Below are positions 2,380 to 60,630 of a stretch of 64,000 bases of DNA, piece by piece. Position 1 is the stretch's first letter. Each line of letters starts with the position of its first letter. Where the stretch lies: the NCBI RefSeq assembly GCF_053078305.1, contig NZ_CP166879.1; one strand, 5' to 3'. The notes under the pieces were generated by a model. That model was not told the DNA's origin and did not search any database. It saw nothing but the letters and a program-made list of their open reading frames with translations. The translations under genes and the position numbers were made by a program.

Positions 2380-3526
2380 TTTATGACCTAAAATTTGAAA
2401 ACATCAGTATCAATACTGACCTCATCAGTCTGAGCATATATTGATAAAGTTTTTATGTTTACACTCAATAAATACCTTGCCAAACAACTAATAGCGATGT
2501 CTACATTGCCATTCGACATGCTTACAATTTTTGTCAACAAGAAAGTGAATTTATATCAACGGTAAGAAGTAAACACGAGGACACCAAAACCAAATGTACA
2601 CACTTTTGTGCTTTGTGTCCCCTGTGTGTACCCAAATGACAAACTGCAAGAAAATCTAGGCACACACTTATCTAACTTATTGATTTAAATGGTGCGATAA
2701 TAGGAATAAAACAAAAGATAAAAATCAATTGATATTTAACAATTTTTTATTGTTGTGTTTTCAATGATACCCCCAAAAGTACCCCCAAATAATTTTATTC
2801 CCTGTCAAAAACTGATAAATGCTCTCAGATATGAGCATTCCTATAGAGGGTTATATCCAGCAAAAAACATGATCCAGTAAAACATCTCGTCGACCAGTTG
2901 CATGGCACGCTCTGTTTTATCCGGGTGCACGGCGTGATTCTGCCCATGCATTACAATCGCCCTGAAGACTTCACATGTATTACTCACTAATTGTGTATCT
3001 TCTTGTGACGTTGGAGTCAACCGTAGTGTTATCGCGCTACGTTTTTTGGCTCCAGCTATAGTACTGCACTTTTTGAGTAGTGACCTACATTTTTCATGCC
3101 GTGTTCCCCTATCCCCGCCCTCTCATCCGCACATCGAATTTCAAGCCTCCTGCAAACCTGCATGACGCTTTCTGGAATATTGCGCCAGCGTTCAATTTAT
3201 CCCCGTTTCTGCGGATGTCTGACCGTGAGCGGCGGTGACTGGTTAACGACGTTATGCAGATACACCTGCACTTAAAAGATAACCGTAGGGATGTGACGAA
3301 ACTTTTGTAGGCTCAGTTTCGGGAGGGGGAACAATAGTCATTATGACCATTCAACCACCAACCAATATCCATGATTCTCTCCCGAATTAGTGATACACCT
3401 TTACCCCTGAGCTCTTCTCAAACAAAGGCTTTATGAAATGTATTTACAAACATCCGGACAGGGGACTGATACACTTTCATTTGCCCCCTCCCCGGCCGAC
3501 TCTTCCTTCTTACAGATTCTGAATAA

Positions 3527-4927
3527 TTATTGTTCGAACTTCGGAGCAATCAGATTATCAAGATTGAATGTCTTCTCCCATTCTTCCTGTGTGAGTAGCT
3601 TACGTTCGACAACCACTATCTGATGGAGGGATTTACCTGTATGGTATGCTTCGTGCGCCATTTCAGAACACACCTTATATCCCAGATGTGGCTTCAGGAG
3701 AGTCACAATACCGCAGGAATGCATTACCATCTCTGCAGTTCGATCGGAATTGGCTGTAATGCCATCAATGCATTTAGTACGGAGTGTGTTGCAGGCATTC
3801 GTCATCACCTTGAGTGAGGTGAACAGCGCAAAAGTGATAACCGGCTCCATAACGTTAAGCTCAAGCTGACCTGCGGATGCCGCCAGCATCACTGTGGTGT
3901 CCAGCCCCTGAACCAGGAAGCAAGACTGGTTTGTTACTTCCGGGATAACAGGGTTAACCTTACCAGGCATAATGGAAGAACCCGGTTGTAACTGAGGCAG
4001 GTTAATTTCAGCCAGTCCGCAACGGGGACCTGAAGCAAGCAACCGAATGTCATTACAAACCTTGGTAAGCTTCACAGAGAGGCTCTTCATGGCCGAACTA
4101 AGTGCAACGTATGCACCACAGTCGCTTGTGGCAGCGATGAGATCTTCACTGTTCCTGAAATTAATACCTGTGAACTGGGCCAGGTATTTCACGGCTAAAG
4201 CGGGATAATCCGGGTGAGCAGTAACACAGGTACCAATCGCAGTAGCACCAAGGTTTACAACCCGCAGGTGTTCCTGCGCATTGCGGATGACCCGAATTTC
4301 ATCATTAATTGTAAAACCCCAGCCATGAAACTCCTGACCGAGGGTCATTGGCACTGCATCCTGCAGATGAGTGCGTCCCATCTTGAGTACTCTGCTGAAT
4401 TCGTCAGCCTTTTTGTAGAATGCCCCAACAAGGTGTTCAACAGCCTCAAGCAATACATTGCTTCGCAGCAGCAATGCCAGATGTAATGCTGTCGGATATG
4501 TATCATTGGTGGACTGACCAAAATTAGCATGGTCGTTTGGCGAAACGCGTTTGTAATCCCCTTTAACGCTACCAAGTTTTTCTGCAGCAAGATTACAAAT
4601 CACTTCATTGCAGTTCATATTGGTTGACGTTCCGGCTCCTCCCTGAAGCCAGTCGGTCACAAACTGTTCCCGGTACTTACCATCAATTAATTGGTCGCAA
4701 GCCCAGATTAAAGCATCCGCAACATCAGCAGGAATTGTACCTAACTCCTTATTAGCCATCGCAGCTGCTTTTTTCACATAACCGAAGGCAATGATGAAGA
4801 AGGGCTCCTGACTCATTGGCATTTCAGTAATATGGAAATTATCCTCACCACGAAGTGTCTGAACACCATAATAGCAATCATCCGGAACTTCACGCTCACC
4901 AAGGAAATCACTTTCAGTACGAGACAT
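3527..4927 (-). CDS. aspartate ammonia-lyase (aspartase) paralog, fumarate-lyase superfamily
   Basis: 466 aa; GSSIMPGKVNPV signature of the fumarate lyase family; colinear with E. coli AspA along its length (LGxREVP...TNDTYPTA...GSSIMP.KVNP) as recalled from memory. Confidence 0.85.
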   Translation of the reverse strand: MSRTESDFLGEREVPDDCYYGVQTLRGEDNFHITEMPMSQEPFFIIAFGYVKKAAAMANKELGTIPADVADALIWACDQLIDGKYREQFVTDWLQGGAGTSTNMNCNEVICNLAAEKLGSVKGDYKRVSPNDHANFGQSTNDTYPTALHLALLLRSNVLLEAVEHLVGAFYKKADEFSRVLKMGRTHLQDAVPMTLGQEFHGWGFTINDEIRVIRNAQEHLRVVNLGATAIGTCVTAHPDYPALAVKYLAQFTGINFRNSEDLIAATSDCGAYVALSSAMKSLSVKLTKVCNDIRLLASGPRCGLAEINLPQLQPGSSIMPGKVNPVIPEVTNQSCFLVQGLDTTVMLAASAGQLELNVMEPVITFALFTSLKVMTNACNTLRTKCIDGITANSDRTAEMVMHSCGIVTLLKPHLGYKVCSEMAHEAYHTGKSLHQIVVVERKLLTQEEWEKTFNLDNLIAPKFEQ

Positions 4928-5163
4928 AATTTTCTAACTCCATTTTTCAAAAACAACGATTATAATTATGAATTGTTTAACCGGAACTATGCTCTCGGAA
5001 TTTGAACTCTCAACTTCATTGAATAAGAACCTCGATAACATGTGATTTCAATCTGTCAGAATTCTTCTGACAGTCAGTAACTGAATGCAAATTAACTGCC
5101 TGACTAATTATCAAATAGTAACTCTGTAACTACTTCCATAAAGAATGAAAAATTATGATTCTG

Positions 5164-6462
5164 TCAGACCACCATTGGTGCAATCACAAACCCAAATGTC
5201 ACTCCTGCAATAACACCTCCCAACCCGGGTAGCATAAATGGGTGATTTAATACATATTTGCCCACACGGGTTGTACCGGTAGTATCAAATTCCATCGCGG
5301 CCAGTGATGTTGGATACGTTGGAAGCACGAATACTCCCGTAACGGCAACATAAGATGCAAGAATTGCCCAGGTGGGTACATCAAGCGCCACAGCAAGCGG
5401 AATAATTAACGGCGTGGTCGCGCCTTGCGAGTAGAGCAGAGCACAAGTGCCAAAAAGAACCAGCGCCAACAACATCGGATAGGCCTGCAAAATATCGCCA
5501 GCAGTATCCTTAATCTCGGTTAAATGCGCATCAATAAAAGTAGTGCCTAAGGTTACAATGCCGAGAATCACCGCCAGCGAGCTCATCCCCGCACGAAATG
5601 TGGAGGTGAGAATAATGGCATCGGTAGCCGTCTTGCACAGCACCACCATCAGGCAGGCGGCAGAGAGCATACAGATAATAATAATATCGCGTGTTTCCAT
5701 CGGTTTGCCGATATCAAACCCCGGACGCAGTTGAGGGAAAGCGGCAAGAATAACAATGGCGACCGTCGCCAGCAGGAACAATCCTACGGAAAGCGTCGCA
5801 CCAGGTTTGATGCTGCTATTATTCTCGTATTTATGCACCAGTCCTTTTTGCAGACGCTCAAGATAGACCTCGTCATCCTGCAACTCACATCCTTGTCGGG
5901 AAGCAATAAAAGCGGCGACCATCGCGGCGGCAAAAGAGGTAGGAAGACATACCGACATCACCTCAATAAAACTGACGCCGTTAACCTCCATAATAGTGAG
6001 CATAGCAGCCATTGCGGCGCTGATCGGCGAACCAGAAATCGCTACCTGCGAAGCAACGACCGAACCGGCGAGCGTGCGGGAAGGACGAATACCTGACTCT
6101 TTCGCAACTTCAGCAATCACCGGCAGTGTGGAAAAAACAATAAATCCGGTACCGGCCATAATAGTCATTGACCAGGTAATAATCGGCGCGATGATGTTGA
6201 TATATTTCGGGTTACGACGCATAAAATTACCGGCGACGCGTACCAGATAATCCATTCCGCCTGCGGCCTGTAATGCTGAAGCCGCCACAACAACAGTCAT
6301 AATAATCAGGATCACGTCTACTGGCGGTGACCCCATAGGCAGACCAAATCCCAGAGTCAGGATAGCGAGTCCAAGCCCGCCACATAAACCAATACCGATC
6401 CCTCCCTGGCGAATACCAAAAAATATTGCGCCAAGTACTACGATAATTTCCAGCCAAACCAT
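5164..6462 (-). CDS. anaerobic C4-dicarboxylate transporter, DcuA/DcuB family
   Basis: 432 aa polytopic membrane protein; N-terminus MVWLEIIVVLGAIFFGIRQGGIGIGL resembles the DcuA N-terminus. Confidence 0.85.
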   Translation of the reverse strand: MVWLEIIVVLGAIFFGIRQGGIGIGLCGGLGLAILTLGFGLPMGSPPVDVILIIMTVVVAASALQAAGGMDYLVRVAGNFMRRNPKYINIIAPIITWSMTIMAGTGFIVFSTLPVIAEVAKESGIRPSRTLAGSVVASQVAISGSPISAAMAAMLTIMEVNGVSFIEVMSVCLPTSFAAAMVAAFIASRQGCELQDDEVYLERLQKGLVHKYENNSSIKPGATLSVGLFLLATVAIVILAAFPQLRPGFDIGKPMETRDIIIICMLSAACLMVVLCKTATDAIILTSTFRAGMSSLAVILGIVTLGTTFIDAHLTEIKDTAGDILQAYPMLLALVLFGTCALLYSQGATTPLIIPLAVALDVPTWAILASYVAVTGVFVLPTYPTSLAAMEFDTTGTTRVGKYVLNHPFMLPGLGGVIAGVTFGFVIAPMVV

Positions 6463-6528
6463 GATGTTCTCCGTTATAAATATAATTTTTTCTAAAAGTG
6501 AATGACTTTCTGGCTGCGATTAAAATGA

Positions 6529-7248
6529 TTATTGGGTTAGAATATGCTGTTTTCCGACACGATTTTCATACCATTTTATTCCGGCGCGAACGAGTGAAGC
6601 AGTTGAGTCAATATAATGAGAAGGCTGTGCTTTAACAGCTTCTGCCAGAATAACCGGAATTTCCGTACAACCAAGAACAAGAACTTCAGCGCCGCGAGAA
6701 AATAGTATTTCAGCCTGCTCGCTCATCAACTGTTGTGCATGCGTCATATCGCCAGCTTTCAAAGAATAAATACTTTCCATTACTTTTTTCTGACTGTCTG
6801 CATCGGGGCGGATACAGGTAAGTCCCAGCGACTCAATTCCTTTTTGGTATAATCCCATATACAGCGTAGCATTGGTGGCTAACAGGCCAATGCGGGTTTT
6901 ACCACAGTCGCGAACTTCATTGATCGTTGTCTCTACGATACTTAATATATCAATATGACAAGCATCTTTTAATTCTTTGAACCAGTAATGTGCGGTATTA
7001 CAGGGAATAACAATACATTCCGCCCCGGCATCTTCCAGTTTATGCATATAGTCACGCATAACAGGTAACGGCGAGCGCCCATGATGCATTAATGCATCGG
7101 TACGGTCAGGAATATTCGGAATAGAAGAAATAATTAATGGAATATGTTCCTGATCACGTTGTGCGGTGGTAAACGTCACAAATTTATTAAACAGATCGAC
7201 GGTAGCCGCCGGCCCCATTCCGCCGAGCACACCGATTAAACCTTTCAT
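6529..7248 (-). CDS. aspartate/glutamate-family amino-acid racemase
   Basis: 239 aa; GVLGGMGPAAT N-terminal motif and CNTAHY / LGCTE catalytic cysteine motifs typical of Asp/Glu racemases. Confidence 0.8.
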   Translation of the reverse strand: MKGLIGVLGGMGPAATVDLFNKFVTFTTAQRDQEHIPLIISSIPNIPDRTDALMHHGRSPLPVMRDYMHKLEDAGAECIVIPCNTAHYWFKELKDACHIDILSIVETTINEVRDCGKTRIGLLATNATLYMGLYQKGIESLGLTCIRPDADSQKKVMESIYSLKAGDMTHAQQLMSEQAEILFSRGAEVLVLGCTEIPVILAEAVKAQPSHYIDSTASLVRAGIKWYENRVGKQHILTQ

Positions 7249-7601
7249 AATCTTTACCTCTCAGAACCTCAATAATAAATCTTAAATAACTACATCTCAT
7301 TTTTTAACAGTCTCCAATGGTTATGAGAAATGCAATGTTGTACAATGTAATGCAAGACTTGCATACTGTGGCTTTGTAATATATGAGCAATTTAGCATTG
7401 TGGCGTGAATACCTTTCATAATGATGAAAACAAACGCTTTTTGACGAGGTGTTAAACTTGTTTCGATACAAAAAATGAATGAATCATGCATAAAACGAAT
7501 AAGAAAATTTCAAATATGTTATCTGTAAACATTACTTTGATTTTCGGGGAAGTATCTTAACTAAGATTTGATAATAGTGGGATAATAGTGGGATTATAGA
7601 A

Positions 7602-8507
7602 ATGAAAAATATAGAGACAAAATGGTTATATGATTTTCTGGCGCTGGAAGCCTGTCGCAGTTTTTGTCAGGCAGCAAAAGAACGTAACCTTTCACAACCA
7701 GCATTCAGCAGAAGAATAAAGGCGTTAGAGTCAGCGATTGGTGTTGTTTTGTTCGATCGTACAACCTCACCTGTACAATTAACTGAAGAGGGTAGGCTTT
7801 TTCACTCCCAGACACGCAGTTTAGTGCAGCAGCTTGAATGCAATCTGAATGAATTAGGGGGGCTAAATTCATTCAATTTGCCCAATATTAAGATTGCAGC
7901 TGCTCACTCATTATCCCTCAGCATATTACCTAAACTGGTGTACTCACTCACTACCTTTGGCGGAGATTTTATCTATCATGTTGAGGCTATTGATGTTGTC
8001 CAAGCCGTAAATACATTACGAGAAGGGAAGAGTGACTTTGTTATTTCATTTCGAGATGAGGAGTTTATGCAATCGCCATTTTGCTACCTGAAACTGTTTG
8101 AGTCTGAGCTATATCCGGTATGTGCTGCTGATCAGCGGGGAAAACCAATTTTTGATATTACCCATTCACAGACCCCTTTGCTCAACTATACTCCAACTTC
8201 TTATATGGGCAGACTGGTTAATCATCATTTAGCAGAGTTAGGAGGGATATCCGGACACACAATTTTTGTATCTTCAATGAGTGAACTACTAAAAAATATG
8301 GCGCTCAATGGACTTGGTATTGCCTGGCTTCCACTCTGGTCAATTGCTGATGAGCTGAAGACCAAACGTCTTGTATGCCCGGGTTCAACTAAATGGACCG
8401 TGCCTATTCAGGCTTATATTTATCGTATGGATACTCGGCTGAATAAAACAGCTGAACACTTTTGGACGATTTTACGAAATAACATTGAAAAACTCAATGG
8501 TGAATAA
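7602..8507 (+). CDS. LysR-family transcriptional regulator
   Basis: 301 aa; N-terminal HTH (FCQAAKERNLSQPAFSRRIKALE); divergent from the racemase operon. Confidence 0.8.
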   Translation: MKNIETKWLYDFLALEACRSFCQAAKERNLSQPAFSRRIKALESAIGVVLFDRTTSPVQLTEEGRLFHSQTRSLVQQLECNLNELGGLNSFNLPNIKIAAAHSLSLSILPKLVYSLTTFGGDFIYHVEAIDVVQAVNTLREGKSDFVISFRDEEFMQSPFCYLKLFESELYPVCAADQRGKPIFDITHSQTPLLNYTPTSYMGRLVNHHLAELGGISGHTIFVSSMSELLKNMALNGLGIAWLPLWSIADELKTKRLVCPGSTKWTVPIQAYIYRMDTRLNKTAEHFWTILRNNIEKLNGE

Positions 8508-8830: not shown

Positions 8831-9607
8831 ATGCATTCGGAAAATATTGCGGCTTACGTCGGGCTGGATGTGCATAAAGAAACGTTGGAGGTTGCTATTG
8901 CTGCACCTGAACGGCTTGGCGAAGTTCATTATTATGGTACGATTAACAACGAAGCCCAGGCTGTACGTCGATTATTTCAGAAATTGCAGGGACTTTACGG
9001 AAACATTCTTTCCTGCTATGAGGCTGGCCCCTGTGGTTTTGGGCTGTATCATCAACTCACAGCGATGAATATAAAATGCCAGGTTATTGCCCCTTCCCGG
9101 ATACCAAAATCACCGACAGACAGAATCAAAAATGATCATCGGGACGCAATTTCTCTCGCCAGGTTACTGCGGGCTGGAGAACTTACCCCTGCCTGGATCC
9201 CTGACCTGACTCATGAAGCTATGCGGGATCTAATCAGAGCCCGTGCAGCAGCTAAACGAGACAGCAGAGTTGCCCGACAGCGAATTCTGAGCATGCTATT
9301 GCGAACAGACAAACATTATGCAGGAAAGCACTGGACAGGAAAACACCGAACCTGGTTAGCTAATCAATCATTTAGTCAGCCATCTCAACAGATTGCTTTT
9401 CAGCACTATTGTCAGAGTCTGGAGCAGATTGAAGATCGCATACAGAAAATTAATGGTCATACGGCTGTTATCACATTTGATCCCGATATTGAGATGTTTC
9501 GCAGTGAGTTTACAGGCCTGAATGGCGGAGCTGATTTTTACGCGCACAGCGTAGAGGAGTTTAAGCGCAAAGGGATTAAGTCACTTGAAATTGAACCGGC
9601 CCCTTGA
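8831..9607 (+). pseudogene. IS110-family transposase, C-terminally truncated
   Basis: 258 aa N-terminal part of an IS110/IS1111-type transposase (YVGLDVHKETLEV...); the ORF ends exactly where the IS2-like element begins; strong RBS gaggagg. Confidence 0.7.
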
Positions 9608-9685
9608 AACGCCAGACAGTGGATGTATCTTAAAATAAGAGATAGGCTTGGATATATGTCTAACACTAGTGCTAATTTTGAGATG

Positions 9686-9960
9686 ACTGGAATTTTGCTG
9701 GGGCAGGAGCTTCGTAAACGTAAAACTCCTCAGGAAAAAATCGCCATTATTCAGCAGACAATGGAACCCGGTATGACGGTGTCCCATGTGGCGCGTTTGC
9801 ATGGTATTCAGCCCAGCCTGTTGTTTAAGTGGAAAAAACAATATCTGGAAGGAAGTCTCACTGCTGTTGCTGCCGGAGAGGATGTCGTTCCTGCCTCAGA
9901 ACTGGCTGCCGCTATAAAACAAATAAAAGAGTTACAGCGCTTGCTGGGTAAGAAATCTAT
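9686..9960 (+). pseudogene. IS2-like OrfA (InsC-like), N-terminal portion disrupted by insertion
   Basis: Matches IS2 InsC as recalled (QEKIAIIQQ...PGMTVS...[13 protein letters not shown]), diverges after LLGKK; the C-terminal remainder [25 protein letters not shown] resumes at 11308. Confidence 0.7.
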
Positions 9961-11307
9961 GGTCCCCACCATTTTTGCAACACTGATTTTGATTGATGTT
10001 GGCTTGCCTAAATCTATCCGGCGTCATTATGGGCATGGATGCCCGCGCCTCGATGAGTTCCGCACCTGATGAGCCCAAAAAACCATCCGGCTTCAGTGAG
10101 CCATTTTCTTGCTGAGGCTTTTCATCAGGCCGATATGCCGTTCATGTCATCAATAATCAGTCTTCGCAAAACCAGATTGGGAACTACTTTAATTCATGAT
10201 TAACCTGCCAGCCAGACTGGCGCCATCGTTACCTTTCGAACACAGTCTGCTGTGTTGTGATTGCCCACGCTATCCGGGCTAATTTGTTGGCCAGTGCGCA
10301 ACATACTACGCTGGAGTGTTTTCTTGCCAACAACGCCCTGACCCAATCCGCCAACCTTCCTGACTGATTCTCGATTCTCTGAATAAAGGATCTTGCGCAC
10401 TGAACGAGTAACCGTCGCAGATTTTTATCTCCACGTTTACTTATCCCTAAAAGTGTATTTTTACCACCTGTGCTGTACTGCCGGGGTACCAGACCGGTTG
10501 AAGCAGCAAAGTCCCGACTGCAGCTATATTGTTTACCGTCTCCCAGCTGCGATGACAGTACGCTGGCGGTTATCGGACCAATACCGGGTATTGTCTGAAG
10601 ACGTTGTCCTACCTCATCACGACTCAGTTCCTGCTCCAGTGCGATTTCAAGCTCGGTGATCTGTCCGACAAGATAAATATAATGGGCATGTAAGCGCATC
10701 AGTAACTGCGCCAGATAGGGAGGAAGTTCGTTCTCTGCAAGTACTGTTGAAAGTCGTTTTACCACTGCGACTCCTGTCGGCATACTGATGCCAAATTCCA
10801 GCAAAAAAGCATGCATCTGATTGGTCGTTTTGACTTTATCACTGACCAATGATTCCCTGGCCCGGTGAAGCGCCCGCATGGCCTGCTGAGCTTCTGTTCG
10901 TGGTTGCACAAATCGCATGGAGGGACGAGATGCCGCTTCGCATATGGCTTCTGCATCGACAAAATCGTTCTTGTTGCTCTTAACAAAAGGGCGAACGAAC
11001 TGCGGAGAAATCAATTTTGCTTCATGACCTAAATCAGCAATCCGGCGAGCCATAAAATGAGCTCCGGCGCAGGCTTCCATCACAACGGTAGACGAGGCAC
11101 AGCCTGCCAGAAACTCAATAAGTTTGGTACGGGTAAACTTTTTACGCAGCAATACCTTGCCTGACTTATCTTGGCAGTGAATGTGAAAGGAATGCTTGCC
11201 AAGATCTATACCAATAAGCGTAATGTTTTGCATGATGGTCTTCTCCATGAAAGAAAAACACTCTACTAGGGTACAGCTCACAGGGTGGTGGGGACCATCT
11301 CATTAAC
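9961..11307 (-). mobile_element. intact IS110-family element nested in IS2-like orfA
   Basis: About 1.35 kb insert; ggtccccacc at the left end (9961-9970) and its reverse complement ggtggggacc near the right end (11286-11295); contains a 350 aa transposase. Confidence 0.75.
10229..11281 (-). CDS. IS110-family transposase
   Basis: 350 aa; N-terminal DEDD-type domain ([13 protein letters not shown]) and C-terminal transposase_20-like region ([12 protein letters not shown]...NKLARIAW). Confidence 0.85.
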
Positions 11308-11358
11308 CATGGAAGTTGAGATCCTCAAAGAAGCGGTGGAGTATGGTCAGTCGCGAAA

Positions 11359-41300: not shown

Positions 41301-42670
41301 GAAATCTCCAGTTTATCTCCAGCCACCTGGGTTTTTATTGGGCCTTTGCCAGTGATTTCGACATTGTCACCAAGACTCTTCGTCAGCGTCTTACCATCTC
41401 CACCTTTAATTTTGATGGCATCATTTTTTATTTCATTTTTCAGCGTTGTTCCGTCAATCGTCATTCCTTTATCATTAACAGTAACTGCAATATCTCCATC
41501 ACCTTTAACAGTTAAAGTGTTACCATTCTTATTATCCTTCCCACCATTAATAGTCGCAGAACCTCCCTTATCATCCTTTAGCGTCCACGTCGGATTAATG
41601 GCATCAAGGTCATCTTTCAGTGTCTTCGCTATCGCATATAACTGACTACCGTTAATGGCATCTGTACTTGTGTCAGAAATCGCACCCGCCCCCACGTTAA
41701 CAATCTGACGCTCTTTACCCGCATCACCAACAGATACTACTGATGCTGCGTTATTTCCGGCAAAGCCACTATATGTGACTTCCGCGCCTCTTTTAGTTCT
41801 GACCTTAGCCTCTGTTACTTTTTGTGCCTGCTTATCCCTGGAGTCAGCGCCGATGGACACGTTCCCCTTTGCGACAGTAACGGTTGCTCCATGCCCCAGG
41901 GCAACCGTTTCATTCTGAGCGGCATTTGCCTCTGAACCAACAGCAAGAGCATCGTTTTTATTTGCAGAGGACTGACTACCAACGGCCAGAGCATTACCGG
42001 CATTAGCCAGCGCATTAAAACCAACCGCAGTCGCCATATCCCCTTTAGCTTCCGCCGTGGCTCCAATTGCATTCGAGGCCATCCCCTCAGCAGAACTCAC
42101 CGAACCAAGCGATACTGACAATTCGCCTTTAGCAAAAGTTCTGCTGCCCAGCGCAATACTGCCATCCCCCTGCGCTTCCGATGCAAGATAGCCATTCTCT
42201 ATTTTTTCCCGACCATAAGTCTTACCATGCAAAGGAGTTAAATCATCCCCACCAATAACAATAGCCCCCCATCCGGTAGCTTTGGTATCGCCACCTATTG
42301 CAATTGACTGTTCTTTAGTTGCTTTCGTTTTCGCTCCTATCGCAATAGACTCGCCTGTGTACAAACCTTCCTTCGTGCTAATGTCACCTCCAGCCTCTGC
42401 ACTGGTACCAATCGCGATAGAGTTACGTCCTTCAGCCACCGGTGATTTATGGTCGAAATTAATTCCCTTTGATTCATCTTTTGCTGTAAATTTCGTTGTA
42501 CCTATTTCAATGCTCTTCCAGTCATCGCCATAGACATCATGGCCAAGGCTGGTTTCATCAACTTCAACAGTTAACTTATTTGTATCTGCCTGAGCACTGA
42601 CCTGTGATATGGATGCCGGATTAAGAACAAGTGATATGGCTATACAGATATGTTTTTTTCTGAGGTTCAT
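38339..42670 (-). CDS. large trimeric autotransporter adhesin (YadA family; UpaG/EhaG/SadA-like)
   Basis: Extended signal peptide MNLRKKHICIAISLVLNPASISQVSAQA with RBS gaggg; repetitive head/stalk; C-terminal YadA anchor ending ...GAGVGWQW (the ORF extends to 42703). Confidence 0.85.
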   Translation of the reverse strand: MNLRKKHICIAISLVLNPASISQVSAQADTNKLTVEVDETSLGHDVYGDDWKSIEIGTTKFTAKDESKGINFDHKSPVAEGRNSIAIGTSAEAGGDISTKEGLYTGESIAIGAKTKATKEQSIAIGGDTKATGWGAIVIGGDDLTPLHGKTYGREKIENGYLASEAQGDGSIALGSRTFAKGELSVSLGSVSSAEGMASNAIGATAEAKGDMATAVGFNALANAGNALAVGSQSSANKNDALAVGSEANAAQNETVALGHGATVTVAKGNVSIGADSRDKQAQKVTEAKVRTKRGAEVTYSGFAGNNAASVVSVGDAGKERQIVNVGAGAISDTSTDAINGSQLYAIAKTLKDDLDAINPTWTLKDDKGGSATINGGKDNKNGNTLTVKGDGDIAVTVNDKGMTIDGTTLKNEIKNDAIKIKGGDGKTLTKSLGDNVEITGKGPIKTQVAGDKLEISAETASLPVNGGNGKITVNNGDGDKLVTAKNIADAINQSGWKIKADKDTGGVIEGNGQGTETLIKPGDMVTLKAGKNLSVKQSGGDFTFSVIDTPSFSSVQLNGKGNNGSVTLSSEGNKLTLSGGNGAGQNGVVISGVASGLEGKELSTLTNTDKEMKNAASVADLKTAIDGVSSSMQGAGFALKDSDDKEVKQSLGQAIKVSGDSNITTTAITNGDKGLKISLNNDLSVGSNNTPGSIKVNGADGKEAVSLNGQDGTIKLTSSPAAGGKSASATIAVNAGKGGLTDAAGTTKTRLTYTPDGKSPAEELATMNDGLSFEGDDGKVIHKKLNEKLTIKGGAEKNAEVTDGNIRVDNDNGGLLVRMTRNLRDLASAVFGTGGQITTVNDKGITITTPAAGGGQGNTVSLTGSGLNNGGNQITSVASGLNGTALADAGGDVLNNAANIGDLKNALRDSSAALVNTGFGLQADDGSKVNTSLGKHITVGGDGQNISTTVQNGSLTVRLADNIRLGDDGSVSVGGTRMDKNGLTIKDGPSVTVNGIDAAGRVISGVKDGVNDQDAVNVSQLNREISQATAATTWALKTESGDEAVAVSSQTVEVRHGQNTRVSAISKDDKGNYSYEIDVTGIPVEYTDSQGNPLVNIGGRFYTQTEDAATGKLTMTPAEPARVRISSEQPLVLTNVAAGNVSPVSTDAVNGSQLASAARIAGGDNVVWKDGKAALAPDTFSELTTAGGGKTTVNGGVHKTPDNVADAVNMLNREGTKYFKAASSGQAAKAEGRDSIAVGQGAVSRGQNSIAMGNGAEVTRQAAAGSVAVGSHARAGRANTGTYALNGQAVAGRTGSDTAVVSFGQPGQERQLQSVAPGVLSANSTDAVNGSQLHATNRQVAGNTQAINTLGNKFSQLSYRVEELNRDIRGVGASAAAMSGIPQAYLPGKSLMGLGVGGYGGESAIAIGVSRISDNGKMIMKLNAGQNTRGNFSVGAGVGWQW

Positions 42671-43343
42671 ATATACCCTCTTTTCTCCTTTATTTTCTTC
42701 CACTCAGTCGGAATAGCATAAAAATCATGCATGAATATTATGTAAGGTGGACTACCTTCATTTCTTCAGCATCCATTTTTTATAAAGCCAGAAGTGAACA
42801 AAACGGGAACCATTAAAAAGCAGACAAAAGGCAATAAAGTGATTTATAATAATGCAAACATAAAACATATTAAGTTTAAGTAAACTACCCGACATTACGC
42901 GTTACAGCAGAATGCAGGTACACTACCTGCCATTGCCTGACGCACTGGCGAAGGCAGTAAAAATGAGATACATTTCACTTCGCAGCAAAAAAAACGAAAT
43001 CCTGCAATTTTTCTGATTTTACTGACAGAAAAGCCCGAGAGTTAAATTTAAATAACTTAAAAGATTCTGTGGTATAATCAGGTTCATACAGGCCTGATTG
43101 TTTCACAGGAAATTAAATCTTTTAAATCAACAGGCTATGGAGGTGTAATGGTGATGAATTGTGTAAAGATAGAGTGTGAGTATAACTGGAGTAATAAAAC
43201 CAAATTAAAATTATCAATATTTAACAAATGTAATTTATTAAGTTTATTTTTATCAAAATTAAAAGCATTACAACCTGGAAGCTGACGTTACTGATTACTA
43301 TACTGGTACCTGAGGCGCACGGCCTCAGGTTATCTATATTCTC

Positions 43344-45392
43344 TCAGAAGGATATTCTTACATTAGCCCAGTAACGACGTCCTTCATCGACCTGCCAGTT
43401 ACCATCAATGGTATCGATATCTTCGCTCTTTCTGTCTGTGACGTTAAGTACGGCAAAATTAATCAGCGTGCCTGGCAGGAACTGGTAATTCATACCAATA
43501 TCCATAGAAGTGAATCCATTACGAACACGGGGAACCTTGGCACCATTTCTTTGTGCTGCCCAGATTTGTTTTCCTGTATAATTCAGAGATGAATAAAATG
43601 TAATATCCTGAGTGTAATCCCATTCCAGTTTTGCATTGGCTGCATGTCTGGGAGTTCTTTCCAGAGGTTCCCCTTTCAGCGACTTGCCATTGAGACTTTC
43701 GTCATCGCTTTCTCGACGGGAGTCAGTGAATGTATAGTTTGCAGATACACGCCATTTATCATACACAGGAATCTGAGTTGCAAGCTCCACACCTCTGATA
43801 TTTGCCTCACCCACATTATCATAAATAAAAGTGTTTAGCCCAGTGACTGGATCTTTTGTGCCTATATCGTAACTGGTCAGCTTATTTTTAAAATCTGTAT
43901 TAAACAGAGTCGCGCTTGCTGAAAAACCACTGTCATTATTATAAATAATACCGATCTCTTCGGTTACACTGGTCTCCGGTTTCAGGTCCCTGTTTCCATA
44001 CATAATAGAGGCACCACCCTGCGTCAGTGTTCCAAATCCAGGACTGACCTCACGAATCGAAGGGGCCCGAAATGCTTTTGCGATCCCTCCTTTGAGAGTG
44101 AGATTATCGGTCAGGTTATAAACAGCATACAATCTTGGATTCCAGTAACTGCCATAGATTTCATGGTTATCGAGGCGCAACCCTCCAGTCAGGGCGAGAG
44201 AATCCGTTGCAGCATATTCATTTTCTATAAAAACAGCTTTCTGTTTAACTGAAACAGACTGTGTTTCTGTCGTTTTTTTACCTGTGGCTGAGTCATCACG
44301 GAGTTCTGCATGCTGAAATTGACCTCCGATGGTCAGCACATTTTCCGGCAGAAATGCCGTCACTTTTGCATCTATGATCGTGTTGGTTATTTCCGGTTTT
44401 CTTGACTCGTAATTAAGATCCCAATGATTATATTTATCTTTTTTACCAGATTTAACCTCACGAATAACTTTCTCCTGATAAACAGCAATTTCAGGATGCA
44501 GTATTTCGCCCTGGGCATTCCATGCTGCTACCCAGTGACTACGTGAGTTATGTGTTTCTCTTTTACTGTTTGGTTGTTTAAGATTTCCCCGCATAGTCCA
44601 GGCATCAAGAGAATCACCAGGTGTTAATGTATGTTCCTGGTTATTTTTTCCGTATTCAAAAACAAACTTCTGGCTTTCAGTCGGAGTAAACTGGAGTGTT
44701 GCCGTTATATTCTTATTATCTTTTGCTGGTGTTCCCTGAGAGATACTATCTTCCTTGCGATAGTTCATTCCTCCATATAACTGAAGACCAAGTTTATCCT
44801 TAACCAATGGGCCTGACAGGTAGAAGTCATTCGTGGTTGAGTTACCAAATTTCCCATGTTCCTGAATAATTCCCCCAAGCCCAAGTACGCCATCCCATGT
44901 CTGGTTATTAACAGGTTTGGTTATGATATTAATAACTCCTCCGATAGCATCGGAACCATACAGGGAAGACATAGGGCCACGTATAACTTCAATACGCTCA
45001 ATTGCTTCCACAGGAGGGATAAATCCGGCTTCAAAACCGCCGCTGCCGTTTGGTCTGGATTCCCGACCACTCTGACGTCGTCCATCGACCAGAATCAATG
45101 TATAATCGCCACTTAACCCACGTATACTGATATCCGGTTTTTCATTCCCACCGGTGATACTAATCCCTTCAACATCTTTTACCGCATCGACCAGGTCTGA
45201 AACCGGTTTTTTTTGCAGTTGCTCTGAAGTAATGACTGAAACACTGGCCGGTGCATTTCTGAGTTGCTGAGTGAAGCCGGAGGCAGTAACAACAAGCGTA
45301 TCTTCTTTTTTATCAGAACTGGCATAACCTGATGATATGACTGCAGAACATATCACGGCAATGCCCGGAGCAATGATATATTTGTTCTTCAT
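43344..45392 (-). CDS. TonB-dependent outer-membrane siderophore receptor (IrgA/IreA/Iha-like)
   Basis: Signal peptide from the internal ATG; TonB box DTLVVTAS; plug and barrel; C-terminal aromatic ...VRISF. Confidence 0.85.
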   Translation of the reverse strand: MKNKYIIAPGIAVICSAVISSGYASSDKKEDTLVVTASGFTQQLRNAPASVSVITSEQLQKKPVSDLVDAVKDVEGISITGGNEKPDISIRGLSGDYTLILVDGRRQSGRESRPNGSGGFEAGFIPPVEAIERIEVIRGPMSSLYGSDAIGGVINIITKPVNNQTWDGVLGLGGIIQEHGKFGNSTTNDFYLSGPLVKDKLGLQLYGGMNYRKEDSISQGTPAKDNKNITATLQFTPTESQKFVFEYGKNNQEHTLTPGDSLDAWTMRGNLKQPNSKRETHNSRSHWVAAWNAQGEILHPEIAVYQEKVIREVKSGKKDKYNHWDLNYESRKPEITNTIIDAKVTAFLPENVLTIGGQFQHAELRDDSATGKKTTETQSVSVKQKAVFIENEYAATDSLALTGGLRLDNHEIYGSYWNPRLYAVYNLTDNLTLKGGIAKAFRAPSIREVSPGFGTLTQGGASIMYGNRDLKPETSVTEEIGIIYNNDSGFSASATLFNTDFKNKLTSYDIGTKDPVTGLNTFIYDNVGEANIRGVELATQIPVYDKWRVSANYTFTDSRRESDDESLNGKSLKGEPLERTPRHAANAKLEWDYTQDITFYSSLNYTGKQIWAAQRNGAKVPRVRNGFTSMDIGMNYQFLPGTLINFAVLNVTDRKSEDIDTIDGNWQVDEGRRYWANVRISF

Positions 45393-45412
45393 AAATTTCC
45401 CTTTTCTAAAAT

Positions 45413-45431
45413 CGTAATGATAATGATTTGC
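45413..45431 (-). promoter_or_regulatory. Fur-box-like operator upstream of the TonB-dependent receptor
   Basis: cgTAATGATAATgATTtgC matches the 19 bp Fur consensus GATAATGATAATCATTATC at 14 of 19 positions, about 20 bp upstream of the start codon. Confidence 0.45.
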
Positions 45432-46158
45432 GTTAGCAAGAAAAAATTTACAATGAACAGAAAGGAAGGTAAATAACATTTAGCTCATTCAGGTAACACT
45501 TTGAACCTGTCCGACTTGATGAGAATCAGCCCCTTTCTACGAGGGACTCCTTACTGTATAATTTATAGTCCTGTCGAAGAGGTAAAATCTTTCAACCGGA
45601 TATCTCCATAAACAGCATTCCAGTAAATCAAGCAAGAGTGAACAGGAGACTGGTGCTGTTTATTACGGTATGCTTGTCCGATGTGGTGGAAAATAAAAAT
45701 GGGCGACTGACCAGATATGGGAGTCTCCGGTCAGTCATTCGCTTGTAGATGCAGGACATAAGCGAACCAAGGCCCACTGCTTCTGCGCAAAAGCAAGGGG
45801 GAGTTTACCCTGGTAGATTGAGTTTCGCGTCACTGACCAGTCAGAGCTTCAGACTCATCTTACACCACTAACCCCCTTACCACTCCTGAATCTTCCCTCG
45901 GCAACAGCCAAGACAGTATCGTACTGTTCACCACCATCTTTTCCCGTGAATGACAGTAAGTGCAAAGCCCCAATATAAATCAGTACTTCCGATGACAGAC
46001 AGTGAAGGCGTAAGGTGAAATATGCACGTAAGGCAGTATGACTTTCCGTGAGACAGATGCTGTCCAACGTGGGATATTTAATGCGGGTTAACATCGTTGT
46101 CAGAGCCGCATGGGTGAGCTGTTGCTACCCCCCTGGAATTTCCACCACGGAGGCCAGC

Positions 46159-55045: not shown

Positions 55046-57727
55046 TTAGCCTGACAGGCCTGACAAAAACGCGCCCAACTTCCCTTCTATATCACTGTCT
55101 ATAGTACGTAATCTTAGCAATGGCAGACCACATTTCTTCAGTATACTGTTTTTAAGTTCATCACGTTCAGCCTGGACACTGGTCAGATGATAGCCTCCAT
55201 CCACTTCAATAACCCCTAATGGAGTCTTCCCGACCTTATAGTAAACAACAAAGTCACAACTGGCCCGATTACGCATGAATAACAGTTCACGGTGAGTAAA
55301 ATCTCCCCGCTCCAGCAACACCAACTGATTCAGCGCTATTTGTGAATGAAACATCATGCTCCGATAACTATCCTGCGACAGGATATCCCGCAACAGGCAG
55401 GCCACAATCTGTTCTGACTTAAAGCGTGAATCATCTGAATTCAATCTACTATTCAGTCGTTCCAGTGATTTGTCATACTCACTGTACAGCAAATCAAATG
55501 CTGATATCACCGGGCTCTCGAAAATCTCTCCGTCATCAGCGTAGTATCTGATGTAACGAATCAGTGCCGCAATATGTCCAGCGTGGCGTTCAAATACATC
55601 ATTACCAGTCACCAACGTAAATTTGTTTCGGGCCCTTGAAACAGCGACATTCACCAGTTCAGGATTATCAACAAACGCGATATTCCGACTTTGCTGGCTG
55701 CTGCGTTTCTTATCCAGCACAGTGGAAAACACAATTTCATCGCACTCCCGTCCCTGAAATTTATGCACCGTCGATTTCACAAAATCAGCGGGCAGCACTG
55801 TTTCAGCCAGATTAACCTGTGCATTATATGGGGCGATATATCCCCTGCTACTTTCCTCATCCCAGTAATGTCCTTCCAGAGATTCAAGCTCCCTGAGATT
55901 TGAAAAATTACGGGTATGGTTTCCTTTTGCCGTGATGATCAGAGATAATGAGGCTTCACCTGAATCAAGCGTTAGCGGTATCAGAGCATTATCATAAAAC
56001 TGCTTATTACAAAATTGAATGATTTTAGGATGACAGCGATAATGCTCTTTAAGAAGAGTTACTGGCACCATATTCCTGAACGACATACAAACCGAATCAA
56101 GTAGACTATATTTCTCACAATTATAGTATTCTGCCGGTGGAGATGGGCTGTTCGGGAGTAATACAGGAACATGTGGAAGTTGCTTTCGATCCCCTACAAC
56201 GATTACATTACGGGCACATCCTAGTCCCAGAATGCCCGGAACAATATCCTGCTGTGAGGCTTCATCAATAATCACATAATCAAGAAGAGCCCCCTTACCG
56301 ATAGAGTTAATAATAGAATGCGTGCTGCTACCAATAACCGGAAAACGCTTTATAAAACGGTTAAATTCATCCCTGTATGTCTCTGCCGAGAATGAATTTC
56401 TTGTTGAAATATTTCTTCGCAGATGTTGTTTTAAATAAAGCACAGACCATGATGTCAGGCGCTCCAGTAAAATTTTAAAATCAGATTCCTTTAATACTTT
56501 CTCATATTCATTCAAAGAAATTTGTTTTTCCCGGATGGATTTTTCATAATAAGAAAGCTGAAGAGAAGTAAATAGTGCCAGCCTTCTCTCCGGAATCACC
56601 AATGGTTTGACTTTCAGTATCCTGAAGTTTAACAACAAATCAATTCTGTTTCTGAATCCAATCCGCCTGTCAGAAAGGTAATGAATATAAGCCATCAGGT
56701 CAGTTGTTTTTCGTGAGGAAAGTCGGTATTTGTGAGAAAAAAGCTCCTCCGGTCGAAGATTCTGACTCTGCCATTGCTGCAGGTATTTATACTCAACACT
56801 CAGTTCATTAATTTCTGCTTTTAACGAAGCAACCTGGTTGATAGCATTCAGGTGTTTTTTCACTTGTTGAAGTACATCATCAATCATATTTGCAGACGGT
56901 GAGTCAGGTAAGACTTCCTCAGAACGCGAAATCGACGTTGAAAAAAACTGTTGTCTGTTCTCCGTACTTCCCAGTCGTGCCACCACATATCCCAGTCGTT
57001 GTTTGTCCATTTTTTCATAAACATTACTGACAGCTGAGTTATTATTGGACAAAATTGCCACTGTTTTATTCTGAATTAATATATTGGCAACAATATTGAG
57101 AATAGTCTGTGTTTTACCTGTCCCAGGTGGTCCTTCAATAACTGAAATCTGTGAGGAAAATGCCCGTTCAACCGCCATTAACTGACTCTCATTCAGGCCA
57201 AACGGAAAAATCAACCCCCATGGCGAATCACGTTTTTTACTCTGTCCTGAACAGTATGCATGCAAGGCGGTATCCGGATGAGGAACTATTTTCTTTATCT
57301 GTCTGAGGATATTCTCATCGATATTTTTATTATTACCTCGAGCATAAAAAACACGTTCGTCAGCCACCCTGCACAAGTAATTAAACACGGCATGCTCTGT
57401 AAATGCTGAACACTGTTGAAAGTCAAGTCCGGTCGTTTTCATGATGTAGGGTCGTTCGCTCTCACGGTAATAAACAGCAGCATATTTATCACCATAGATA
57501 ATAACCCGTTCAGCCCGGGATGTTACAGCGTTCCCTTTCCTTTCGAGGAAAACATTTCGCAAAATTACAGTTGGCGTTATCTGACATACAGAAAGCGGAC
57601 GAGTATATTTTTTCCCGCTGCGAAAATGACAGGTCAGCATAACCTCTCCGTCATCATTTCCAGCCCACAGAGTCCAGTCGGTAATTTTATGAGTCTTATT
57701 TTCACCGTCAACACAAATCGTGACCAT
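55046..57727 (-). CDS. SF1 (Upf1/DNA2-like) helicase with C-terminal DUF559/Vsr-like nuclease-fold domain; candidate single-gene defence protein
   Basis: 893 aa; Walker A GPPGTGKT; motif II VIIDEASQ; C-terminal DFVVYYK...GVIEVDGGYH...LPLLRLR resembles the DUF559/Vsr-like PD-(D/E)xK fold; about 190 aa N-terminal domain of unknown function. Confidence 0.7.
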   Translation of the reverse strand: MVTICVDGENKTHKITDWTLWAGNDDGEVMLTCHFRSGKKYTRPLSVCQITPTVILRNVFLERKGNAVTSRAERVIIYGDKYAAVYYRESERPYIMKTTGLDFQQCSAFTEHAVFNYLCRVADERVFYARGNNKNIDENILRQIKKIVPHPDTALHAYCSGQSKKRDSPWGLIFPFGLNESQLMAVERAFSSQISVIEGPPGTGKTQTILNIVANILIQNKTVAILSNNNSAVSNVYEKMDKQRLGYVVARLGSTENRQQFFSTSISRSEEVLPDSPSANMIDDVLQQVKKHLNAINQVASLKAEINELSVEYKYLQQWQSQNLRPEELFSHKYRLSSRKTTDLMAYIHYLSDRRIGFRNRIDLLLNFRILKVKPLVIPERRLALFTSLQLSYYEKSIREKQISLNEYEKVLKESDFKILLERLTSWSVLYLKQHLRRNISTRNSFSAETYRDEFNRFIKRFPVIGSSTHSIINSIGKGALLDYVIIDEASQQDIVPGILGLGCARNVIVVGDRKQLPHVPVLLPNSPSPPAEYYNCEKYSLLDSVCMSFRNMVPVTLLKEHYRCHPKIIQFCNKQFYDNALIPLTLDSGEASLSLIITAKGNHTRNFSNLRELESLEGHYWDEESSRGYIAPYNAQVNLAETVLPADFVKSTVHKFQGRECDEIVFSTVLDKKRSSQQSRNIAFVDNPELVNVAVSRARNKFTLVTGNDVFERHAGHIAALIRYIRYYADDGEIFESPVISAFDLLYSEYDKSLERLNSRLNSDDSRFKSEQIVACLLRDILSQDSYRSMMFHSQIALNQLVLLERGDFTHRELLFMRNRASCDFVVYYKVGKTPLGVIEVDGGYHLTSVQAERDELKNSILKKCGLPLLRLRTIDSDIEGKLGAFLSGLSG

Positions 57728-59765: not shown

Positions 59766-59819
59766 CGGCAGATTCAGTGTTGCTGTATCAAATCATAATT
59801 AATATTCCCGGAAAGAGCG

Positions 59820-60128
59820 TCAGTGTAATACCGGTACCCGGGAAAGGTATTCCACCGCACGGATGATTGCCGGTGTCACATCCCACCGCCGCTTCAGAAC
59901 CGCCAATAACTCACTGAGTGTTCTGATATAACGTTCAGTGAACAGTCGCTGCCCGTCCCTGGTTAAATGAAAACCGGACTGATTACAGGTAATGGTAATA
60001 TGGCAGGCATCATTACCAATATATACGGCTTCCTGTGGCCTGAATCTGACATTCCAGTGCCAGGAATACGGAGCATGATTCAGATAAAAAAGGCGCATCT
60101 GGATGTCATTAAATAACGGGTTCATCAT
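59820..60128 (-). CDS. hypothetical T6SS-cluster protein (102 aa)
   Basis: ORF between the ImpA-N gene and tssE; no motif. Confidence 0.45.
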   Translation of the reverse strand: MMNPLFNDIQMRLFYLNHAPYSWHWNVRFRPQEAVYIGNDACHITITCNQSGFHLTRDGQRLFTERYIRTLSELLAVLKRRWDVTPAIIRAVEYLSRVPVLH

Positions 60129-60177
60129 TCAGCCCTCGTTTATGTCTGTTAAGCACACGGATAAGGGGAACCATAAA

Positions 60178-60630
60178 TCACCCCCTGAAAGTCATCACAT
60201 TATCCACAAACTGCTGTTGCTTCAGATATCGCAGTAACACCCTGCCCTCCGGCATAAAAGTTGTTCCGTAACGAACCAGTCCTGCATCTTTAAGTTCTGC
60301 ATCAATGACATAATGCAACTCACCAGGCTGAGTCTGTTCCTGCATCGTCACCCCGACACGCTTAATACGTGGCTCATACTTCAGCAGAACATCTGAAAGC
60401 ACACACATCAGTTGATGCGCCGTTCCCGGCATTCCCTGCAGAATGCTTGTCATATCCGGCAGACCATAATCCGGAAGATGTTTAAGGCTTCCGGCCCGGG
60501 TATTCAGAATACGCTGCATGTTATCGAGCACCGAAAGAATAACCTGCTCTTCCTCACTGACCTGGTTTAACTCCAGCCCGCCAGCGAAATTGCCATAGAG
60601 AATTTCATAAAGGGAAGGACGCGGCATCAC
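60178..60630 (-). CDS. tssE: type VI secretion baseplate protein TssE (gp25-like)
   Basis: 150 aa; gp25-like pattern (SLYEIL...LPDYGLPD...); adjacent to tssJ/G/F. Confidence 0.8.
   Translation of the reverse strand: MMPRPSLYEILYGNFAGGLELNQVSEEEQVILSVLDNMQRILNTRAGSLKHLPDYGLPDMTSILQGMPGTAHQLMCVLSDVLLKYEPRIKRVGVTMQEQTQPGELHYVIDAELKDAGLVRYGTTFMPEGRVLLRYLKQQQFVDNVMTFRG

Follow-up and report, generated by a model that had tools for sequence, protein, structure and literature searches.

In the present study, we followed up a candidate D-aspartate utilisation locus at positions 3,527 to 8,507 of a 64,000-nucleotide (64-kb) stretch of contig NZ_CP166879.1 (RefSeq assembly GCF_053078305.1), the whole of which is called here the window. 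In this locus, genes for a LysR-type regulator, an Asp/Glu-family racemase, a DcuA-like transporter (dcu) and an aspartase (aspA2) lie next to each other. We consider it likely, with a probability of about three in four, that the region consists of two accessory aspartate-metabolism units placed side by side in an Escherichia coli genomic island. The first, made up of the LysR, racemase and dcu genes, would be a D-aspartate module of the AspR-DcuA type known from the Shigella resistance locus (SRL), and the second would be aspA2 standing alone, whose product could convert the L-aspartate (L-Asp) from the first unit to fumarate and ammonium and so supplement the core AspA. The use of D-aspartate (D-Asp) by a LysR/racemase/DcuA-like module was already published in 2020 and that basic picture is unchanged by the present locus, which is a third, rare allele and a new gene arrangement of the SRL-type module.

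Gene content of the locus

The four genes of the locus are as follows.

7602-8507, plus strand: LysR-type regulator, 301 amino acids (aa), intact open reading frame (ORF)
6529-7248, minus strand: Asp/Glu-family racemase, 239 aa, intact ORF
5164-6462, minus strand: DcuA-like C4-dicarboxylate/aspartate transporter (dcu), 432 aa, intact ORF
3527-4927, minus strand: aspartase-like ORF (aspA2), 466 aa, intact ORF

These coordinates in the ORF listing match exactly the four ORFs of the original prediction, and its family labels agree with the NCBIfam profiles and with sequence searches of the PDB. The LysR gene is divergent from the racemase gene, with an AT-rich gap of 353 bp between them; the gap from racemase to dcu is 66 bp and that from dcu to aspA2 is 236 bp. 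Because the aspartase, Dcu and LysR proteins of the window are only 54%, 50% and 55% identical to AspA, DcuA and HypT of E. coli K-12, respectively, they are accessory paralogs, and the earlier statement that this is an accessory copy apart from the core aspA-dcuA pair was borne out.

The known counterpart in Shigella

The SRL pathogenicity island of Shigella flexneri carries orf7 (LysR-like), orf8 (racemase) and orf9 (DcuA-like), and Henriquez et al (2020, PMC6980539) showed that loss of the island abolishes D-aspartate respiration, which was essentially the sole phenotype lost among about 800 Phenotype MicroArray conditions. In the same work, orf8 and orf9 together, with the orf8 promoter, brought back the depletion of D-Asp with the appearance of L-Asp, as well as growth on D-Asp, in both S. 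flexneri and S. sonnei; orf8 alone or orf9 alone was insufficient, so that both are required. The orf8-orf9 unit was said there to occur in E. coli O104:H4 too, and a review of the same year names this cargo of the island 'AspR-DcuA' (PMC7545054).

Orthology to orf7-orf8-orf9 was judged via the O104:H4 copy, since this strain is named by Henriquez et al as carrying the orf8-orf9 unit (PMC6980539). The window proteins are 91% (racemase, over 239 aa), 98% (transporter) and 80% (LysR) identical to that copy, and for this reason the reading as a D-aspartate module is in substance correct and already known. All three structural features of the SRL type are found in the window, namely a racemase of the orf8 type, a co-directional dcu gene downstream of it and a divergent LysR gene. 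The utilisation of D-aspartate that had been proposed for the locus is therefore right in substance, as the orthologous orf8-orf9 genes give racemisation of D-Asp and growth on it (PMC6980539). For the window genes themselves, the same two functions are predicted by analogy with the Shigella genes, and we regard this as a likely outcome.

The two modules are alike in further respects. In both, the LysR gene is divergent from racemase-dcu, the gene order and the promoter-operator block are equal, and both sit in horizontally acquired islands. They differ in what follows dcu, which is IS600/IS1 in the SRL/O104 type and an aspartase paralog in the window, and in the leader of the LysR gene, which has one additional 11-bp unit in the window.

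Distribution of the module

Complete E. coli genomes (n=5426) were searched for the counts given here. The racemase-dcu pair was present in 578 of them (about 11%). It occurs as the SRL/O104 type in about 348 genomes, with about 90.6% nucleotide identity, and as the ST70 type in about 234 genomes, with about 86% nucleotide identity over racemase-dcu. The full four-gene stretch including the aspartase was found in 221 genomes, and the core aspA-dcuA pair in 5425, at 99% identity or more in nearly all of them. Unlike the SRL type, the window allele is in no RefSeq complete E. coli genome, and the only record of 95-99% identity among the best rows of the E. coli search is a 40-bp match. Over a stretch of 5.4 kb, the window matches E. 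coli STEC639, a Shiga toxin-producing E. coli (STEC) from sheep, at 99.9% identity, and this strain is the only place where the allele was found; the nearest racemase allele otherwise (97% identical) is that of E. albertii.

A scan for the racemase with one genome per species gave 26 loci outside E. coli, distributed over E. albertii, many Citrobacter, Trabulsiella, Limnobaculum, Leminorella, Providencia, Edwardsiella and Brenneria. When the four window proteins were compared with these loci by tblastn, the LysR/racemase-Dcu arrangement was recovered in nearly all of them, and dcu adjoined the racemase gene just as regularly. The trio is present in E. albertii, Citrobacter, Limnobaculum, Leminorella, Providencia and Edwardsiella, and Trabulsiella has kept LysR and racemase with a Dcu match that is partial only. 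The flanks of the trio are unrelated between genera (in Citrobacter it lies between fruBKA and the pseudouridine (psu) genes), and no additional conserved catabolic gene (for instance an aminotransferase or a lyase of the CuyA kind) was found beside the trio in the other genera. As judged from these comparisons, the conserved functional unit consists of three genes, LysR, racemase and Dcu. This core of the module had been drawn properly in the original prediction; the aspartase had been counted as a part of it and does not belong there, being missing from all 26 loci and having a divergence pattern of its own.

Racemase and transporter

The racemase is well above the threshold of the NCBIfam model TIGR00035 (188.5 against a cut-off of 93.1), and its top PDB matches are aspartate racemases, with the putative Salmonella enzyme 3s7z as the best, followed by 1jfl and 2dx7, archaeal enzymes being included. 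Both catalytic cysteines are present, Cys83 in IPCNTAH and Cys194 in LGCTEIP. By homology, the protein is in all likelihood an aspartate racemase of the two-cysteine family (PF01177), which is independent of pyridoxal phosphate, and the ortholog of SRL orf8 (AspR).

It has also to be considered that the enzyme is CuyB, a racemase of cysteate, and that the module serves cysteate or another sulfonated or acidic amino acid. The CuyB equivalog model NF052483 gives 251.9 bits against a cut-off of 190, which exceeds the score of the generic TIGR00035 model, and the Prokaryotic Genome Annotation Pipeline (PGAP) tags many E. coli copies as 'cuyB: cysteate racemase'. Cysteate is a close structural analog of aspartate, and CuyB of Bilophila wadsworthia (BwCuyB), a member of the same two-cysteine PF01177 family, was reported with cysteate, cysteine and serine only, so an overlap in specificity is possible (PMC11193023). 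However, CuyB is defined by the company of two proteins, the D-cysteate sulfo-lyase CuyA and an SDF transporter (PMC11193023). Neither these two nor a RidA partner go with the present racemase, whose sole conserved partners across the 26 loci are the Dcu carrier and LysR, to which the window adds the neighbouring aspartase. No match to CuyA or another sulfo-lyase model was obtained among the window ORFs submitted to NCBIfam, and the top 120 homologs returned did not include BwCuyB. Furthermore, the experimental phenotype of the SRL orthologs is the utilisation of D-Asp, specific among the many conditions of the array and accompanied by conversion of D-Asp to L-Asp (PMC6980539). The cysteate assignment is thus improbable, the name cuyB is probably over-specific for these homologs and reflects a family-level resemblance, and we retain the aspartate racemase.

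Two-cysteine racemases are reversible, and the module could in principle chiefly detoxify D-aspartate, or make D-Asp from L-Asp for export by Dcu, rather than acquire a nutrient. In line with this, D-Asp reduced the mannose respiration of an SRL-negative strain, cultures without the module dropped in optical density in D-Asp medium (PMC6980539), and CuyB catalyses both directions (PMC11193023). Catabolism and detoxification can, on the other hand, coexist. We know of no structure in Enterobacterales that requires D-Asp, which counts against the biosynthetic version. Detoxification or synthesis as the chief role is accordingly unlikely in our estimation, and nutrient acquisition remains the preferred role of the module.

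The transporter is above the thresholds of two NCBIfam models, NF006927 (583 against 369) and TIGR00770 (495 against 331), and no related solved structure was found by the PDB sequence search. It may with good reason be called a DcuA-like C4-dicarboxylate/aspartate carrier and the ortholog of SRL orf9, and aspartate/C4-dicarboxylate antiport is putative for it. DcuA itself is described in PMC10634366 as an L-Asp/succinate antiporter.

Promoter and operator of racemase-dcu

The intergenic region between LysR and racemase was aligned for 11 sequences from 7 genera. The mean column identity was 43%, and four blocks were invariant or nearly so: the dyad, TTGCATTTC, the -10-like element and the distal box. 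The elements recognised in the window are the following.

7350-7364: proximal operator dyad ATGCAAGACTTGCAT (ATGCA-N5-TGCAT, T-N11-A), predicted LysR site with its centre about 109 bp upstream of the racemase ATG; columns invariant across genera
7324-7335, minus strand: half-site TTGCAT (7335-7330) abutting a weak -35 TTCTCA (7329-7324), predicted activation site overlapping the -35
7335-7327, minus strand: invariant block TTGCATTTC in the alignment across genera
7301-7309, minus strand: extended -10-like TGtTAAAAA (conserved as TGnTAnAnA), predicted racemase-dcu promoter
7486-7500: distal box ATGCATAAAACGAAT (T-N11-A) of the LysR-type transcriptional regulator (LTTR) kind, second operator copy 136 bp from the proximal dyad; columns invariant or nearly so

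The proximal dyad has no other exact match in the 64-kb window, and its spacing of 14 nt to the half-site is conserved. The composite pattern (dyad, 13-15 nt, TTGCAT) stands in the correct orientation upstream of the racemase in 22 of the 26 loci; its one further occurrence in 303 kb, with both strands counted, is in locus L013, where the same palindromic site matches on the opposite strand. Since the dyad is unique in the window and the composite pattern is widespread at these loci and almost absent elsewhere, LysR-dependent control of racemase-dcu is supported, and LysR is probably the activator of this divergent promoter, presumably with D-Asp as its effector. With a predicted transcription start near 7294, the dyad would have its centre near -63 and the half-site would fall near -38, a placement that corresponds to the canonical geometry of LysR recognition and activation sites.

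The centres of the two operator boxes (7357 and 7493) are each 109 bp from the start codon that they face (racemase ATG at 7248, LysR ATG at 7602), and the 136 bp between them equal about 13 helical turns. In Edwardsiella, the two boxes are about 130 bp apart although the LysR gene is not divergent there. With respect to structured RNA, neither the 353-bp divergent region nor the dcu-aspA2 spacer gave an Rfam match at E <= 1.

The LysR regulator and its kinship with HypT

The regulator belongs to the HypT subfamily of LTTRs, as it scores 379 bits with the NCBIfam HypT model NF007488 (cut-off 301) and has 5ydw (HypT/QseD) as its best PDB match (345 bits), and PGAP labels many of its E. coli copies 'hypT'. 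It was nevertheless ruled out as a HypT ortholog: its identity is 55% to K-12 HypT and 57% to Salmonella HypT, compared with 82% between these two true orthologs, and the synteny is different, without iadA-yjiG-yjiH. In sequence terms, it is a paralog of HypT/YjiE/QseD, and the pipeline name hypT is probably over-specific, again for a resemblance at the family level. Of the three activating methionines of HypT, Met123, Met206 and Met230 (PMC3792123), the last two are kept, and Met123 is replaced by Leu in all three island alleles. In addition, the N-terminal extension bearing Cys4 is missing from the window protein and the genomic context is not that of HypT; the effector presumably differs as well, and hypochlorite sensing finds no support for this regulator.

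The composite element was also observed in the promoter of yjiH, the first gene of yjiH-yjiG-iadA-hypT, in K-12 (locus L004, 8700-8811, minus strand) and in Salmonella (locus L034, 10100-10214, minus strand), for comparison with 7301-7364 of the window. In K-12 it reads ATGCAAAAAACGCAT, 14 nt, TTGCATTTT, 20 nt, TGATAAGGT, which is the layout of the racemase promoter, and it lies within a block of about 75 bp conserved between K-12 and Salmonella; the sequence upstream of the block is unalignable. Of the 15 positions of the distal box in the window, 13 agree with the dyad in the yjiH promoter of K-12. Moreover, Salmonella (L034, 6001-10082) has a paralog of the racemase (54% identical to that of the window, PDB 3s7z) convergent with its true hypT, beside iadA-yjiG-yjiH; K-12 has iraD on the corresponding side of hypT. 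No defined binding consensus for HypT was found in PMC3792123, our survey of the literature being non-exhaustive.

These observations suggest that the HypT subfamily has an operator in common and is tied to aspartate-related metabolism. As a tentative extension, the subfamily may at its root regulate the handling of damaged or unusual aspartate (D-Asp, isoaspartyl peptides) through the shared operator ATGCr-N5-yGCAT, 14 nt, TTGCAT, 20 nt, TGnTAA, with the island paralog as a D-Asp sensor. If this were true, STEC, Shigella and Citrobacter could use D-Asp from the walls of Gram-positive gut bacteria, and such wall-derived D-Asp would feed aspartase- and fumarate-based respiration during colonisation.

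The aspartase paralog and its separate history

The aspA2 product scores 678 with NF008909 (cut-off 510) and only 460 with the fumC model, and its top PDB matches are all aspartases (483-521 bits), while fumarases do not exceed 354 bits. In the alignment with AspA and FumC of K-12, it has the motifs GGAGTS, QSTND and GSSIMPGKVNP (the SS loop, with the signature GSSxMPxKxN), and FumC has TGSGTQ and QSSND in place of the first two. A class II fumarase was considered instead of an aspartase, because the protein shares the superfamily and the SS loop with FumC and falls just under the cut-off of the strict aspA equivalog model TIGR00839 (641 versus 681). In view of the profile scores, the PDB ranking and the motifs, the fumarase was ruled out as highly improbable, and aspA2 is, on these features, a bona fide aspartase and a paralog of AspA.

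The history of aspA2 is different from that of its neighbours. A comparison with the ST70 allele (locus L001) gave 94-99.5% nucleotide identity for aspA2 together with the final approximately 130 bp of dcu (block 5100-5299), as against 77-90% for the remaining dcu, the racemase and the LysR gene; at the protein level, aspA2 and its ST70 copy are 98.9% identical. The genes after aspA2 in ST70 are a second Dcu gene (dcuX), ansB and dcuR, and plasmid pECY44-2 has the order FadR-dcuR-ansB-dcuX-aspA2 without the racemase, its Dcu or the LysR gene. The window has kept a trace of this arrangement.

3364-3372, minus strand: dcuX stub, 9 nt, codons 1 to 3 of the gene (ATGGATATT, MDI), the point where the second module breaks off

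Similarity to L001 begins at window position 3364, equal to L001 8001, and the dcuX coding sequence of L001 starts at 8009 (MDII...). The aspA2 gene was detected in 235 genomes, and many genomes have two places that match it. We read aspA2 of the window as the remnant of a separate aspA2-dcuX-ansB-dcuR cluster for aspartate and asparagine. This accessory cluster (ST70, L001 1-9565; pECY44-2, locus L033 268-11054) includes a FadR/GntR-type regulator, an orphan dcuR, ansB, the second Dcu gene and aspA2; two further Dcu-family genes are carried by the ST70 cluster, and the IncF/IncI plasmid adds pepT-dcuC.

The 236-bp spacer between dcu and aspA2 is AT-rich and 94% conserved in ST70, and it contains a promoter-like site. 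No intrinsic terminator was predicted in this spacer or in the 353-bp divergent region, and the folding of the spacer (z = -0.88) is not unusual. The spacer also contains the following element, which could be a protein-binding site.

5053-5073: perfect 9-3-9 palindrome CTGTCAGAA-TTC-TTCTGACAG in the dcu-aspA2 spacer, with no T-tract after it, kept in the ST70 allele

These data bear on the alternative that racemase, dcu and aspA2 form one genuine operon, under selection as a whole, in which aspA2 would be reserved for the D-Asp pathway. In its favour, all three genes point the same way with no predicted terminator in the spacer, the junction and the spacer are kept (94%) in 221 E. coli genomes, the block of high identity runs from aspA2 into the 3' end of dcu, and a physical interaction of DcuA and AspA is reported in a preprint (bioRxiv 10.1101/2021.03.01.433382). 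Against such an operon, aspA2 is absent not only from the 26 loci outside E. coli but also from the approximately 348 E. coli copies of the SRL/O104 type, for which the D-Asp phenotype was shown; it is found with dcuX-ansB-dcuR without the racemase in pECY44-2; and a promoter-like site lies in the spacer, which is long and AT-rich. We therefore find the three-gene operon doubtful. The operon of the original prediction is kept for the racemase-dcu pair with its 66-bp gap and was not confirmed for the aspartase, in view of the long spacer, the promoter-like site and the separate history, and the two-unit arrangement is preferred.

It follows that aspA2 is not required for the D-Asp phenotype, since the tested Shigella construct had no aspartase. 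Since aspA2 became linked to the racemase recently, and in E. coli islands only, it would aid the pathway without being required, and as it is a bona fide aspartase by its motifs, it is a plausible helper for the conversion of L-Asp to fumarate and ammonium. With the core aspA-dcuA pair, the window genes share the protein families and the expected reaction of L-Asp to fumarate and ammonium after racemisation, with exchange through the carrier. Apart from their low identity to the core proteins, they differ from this pair in their reversed order, in that the dcu gene of the window goes with the racemase rather than the aspartase, whose own partner dcuX is deleted save for 9 nt, and in being accessory (221-578 of 5426 genomes versus 5425 for the core).

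Proposed function

It is suggested that the DcuA-like carrier imports D-aspartate, probably in exchange for a C4-dicarboxylate as by analogy with DcuA, and that the cofactor-independent two-cysteine racemase would then convert D-Asp to L-Asp, as its ortholog was shown to do in vivo, for entry into central metabolism. LysR is predicted to bind the dyad ATGCA-N5-TGCAT and the TTGCAT half-site of the weak extended -10 promoter and would activate racemase-dcu, with D-Asp or a closely related metabolite as the most likely signal. The aspA2 product may then take L-Asp further, as described above.

Several points weigh against this reading. The experiments on function come from the Shigella genes and not from the window allele, whose racemase differs from the tested type at 9% of its residues, and the evidence for the SRL racemase is indirect, as it comes from whole-cell high-performance liquid chromatography, not from purified enzyme (PMC6980539). 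The score of the racemase with the CuyB model belongs here as well. What the transporter carries and which effector LysR responds to are inferred, the -63/-38 geometry is a prediction that depends on the predicted start site, and the expression of aspA2, or its co-transcription with dcu, is putative.

With the reading adopted here, genes that pipelines name 'cysteate racemase' and 'hypochlorite stress regulator HypT' receive a correct label, D-aspartate uptake and racemisation, which would cover about 11% of the complete E. coli genomes as well as the genomes sampled from Citrobacter, Providencia and Edwardsiella, and the regulator of the module now has a defined candidate operator. According to a preprint (bioRxiv 10.1101/2022.02.14.480453), L-aspartate fuels fumarate respiration and drives Salmonella and E. 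coli to expand when the gut is inflamed. By adding a route for the D-enantiomer and a further aspartase, pathogenicity islands could improve the fitness of their carriers during colonisation.

The repeat in the LysR leader

An 11-bp tandem repeat directly upstream of the LysR start had been noticed before, and it is indeed present at 7570-7591.

7570-7599, plus strand: 11-bp tandem repeat, GATAATAGTGG twice plus degenerate GATTATAG; the tandem pair ends 10 nt before the LysR ATG

The unit GATAATAGTGG occurs exactly twice in tandem (7570-7580 and 7581-7591), and the degenerate third unit GATTATAG extends the repeat to 7599 (Tandem Repeats Finder: period 11, 2.7 copies, score 53). Because an exact 11-bp tandem duplication is expected only about 0.015 times per 64 kb (64000 x 4^-11), this is a real duplication and not a chance event. 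The ST70 allele reads GATAATACTTG-GATAATAGAA, with one unit fewer, and the intergenic alignment showed no similar repeat in the O104:H4, E. albertii or other-genus alleles; among the fetched loci, the identical duplication was present only in STEC639. A LysR binding site or another conserved regulatory element was rejected as its meaning, given this absence and the shorter ST70 form. The GATAAT hexamers of the repeat were rejected as a promoter too: they give promoter-like hits, but the leader would be at most 9 nt long, without a Shine-Dalgarno sequence. From the compared alleles, the repeat is a lineage-specific slipped-strand gain of one unit, without a conserved role.

Genomic island context

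No tRNA gene or integration site was found within the 64-kb window. The remainder is typical island cargo, with insertion sequence (IS) elements and genes for trimeric autotransporter adhesins, type I secretion, IreA and type VI secretion. To the left of the locus, 60-2379 holds ORFs of 532 and 198 aa without an NCBIfam match, the smaller of which is a hypothetical protein in STEC639. This part is island backbone, which in STEC639 also includes, further left, AlpA, a protein of the inovirus Gp2 type and an enterotoxin gene. On its right side, the module has a flank unlike that in STEC639. Right of the LysR gene, 8831-12240 contains a truncated IS110-like ORF, an intact IS110-family transposase of 350 aa and an IS3 orfB, and these IS remnants are followed at 12269-12979 by a 236-aa fragment of an autotransporter passenger.

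Virulence-island cargo was seen at 20301-21527, 37541-42703 and 43344-45479, consisting of two trimeric autotransporter adhesin genes and the gene of the IreA siderophore receptor. One adhesin is YadA-like (408 aa) and the other is EmaA/Ata-like (1454 aa) with an adjoining TpgA-like lipoprotein with an OmpA domain. Between them, 21770-35883 encodes a 642-aa esterase-like protein with RTX repeats, a type I secretion set (HlyD-type adaptor, LssB-type ABC exporter and TolC-like channel) and, next to this set, a 2357-aa ORF without an NCBIfam match. The latter has an ORF of 1844 aa on the opposite strand, which suggests a highly repetitive sequence. Further right, 55046-57727 encodes an 893-aa protein resembling SF1 helicases, with weak matches to the anti-phage helicases ProA and Hhe, and type VI secretion genes (TssA-like, TssG and TssF) occupy 58401-63965 up to the window end.

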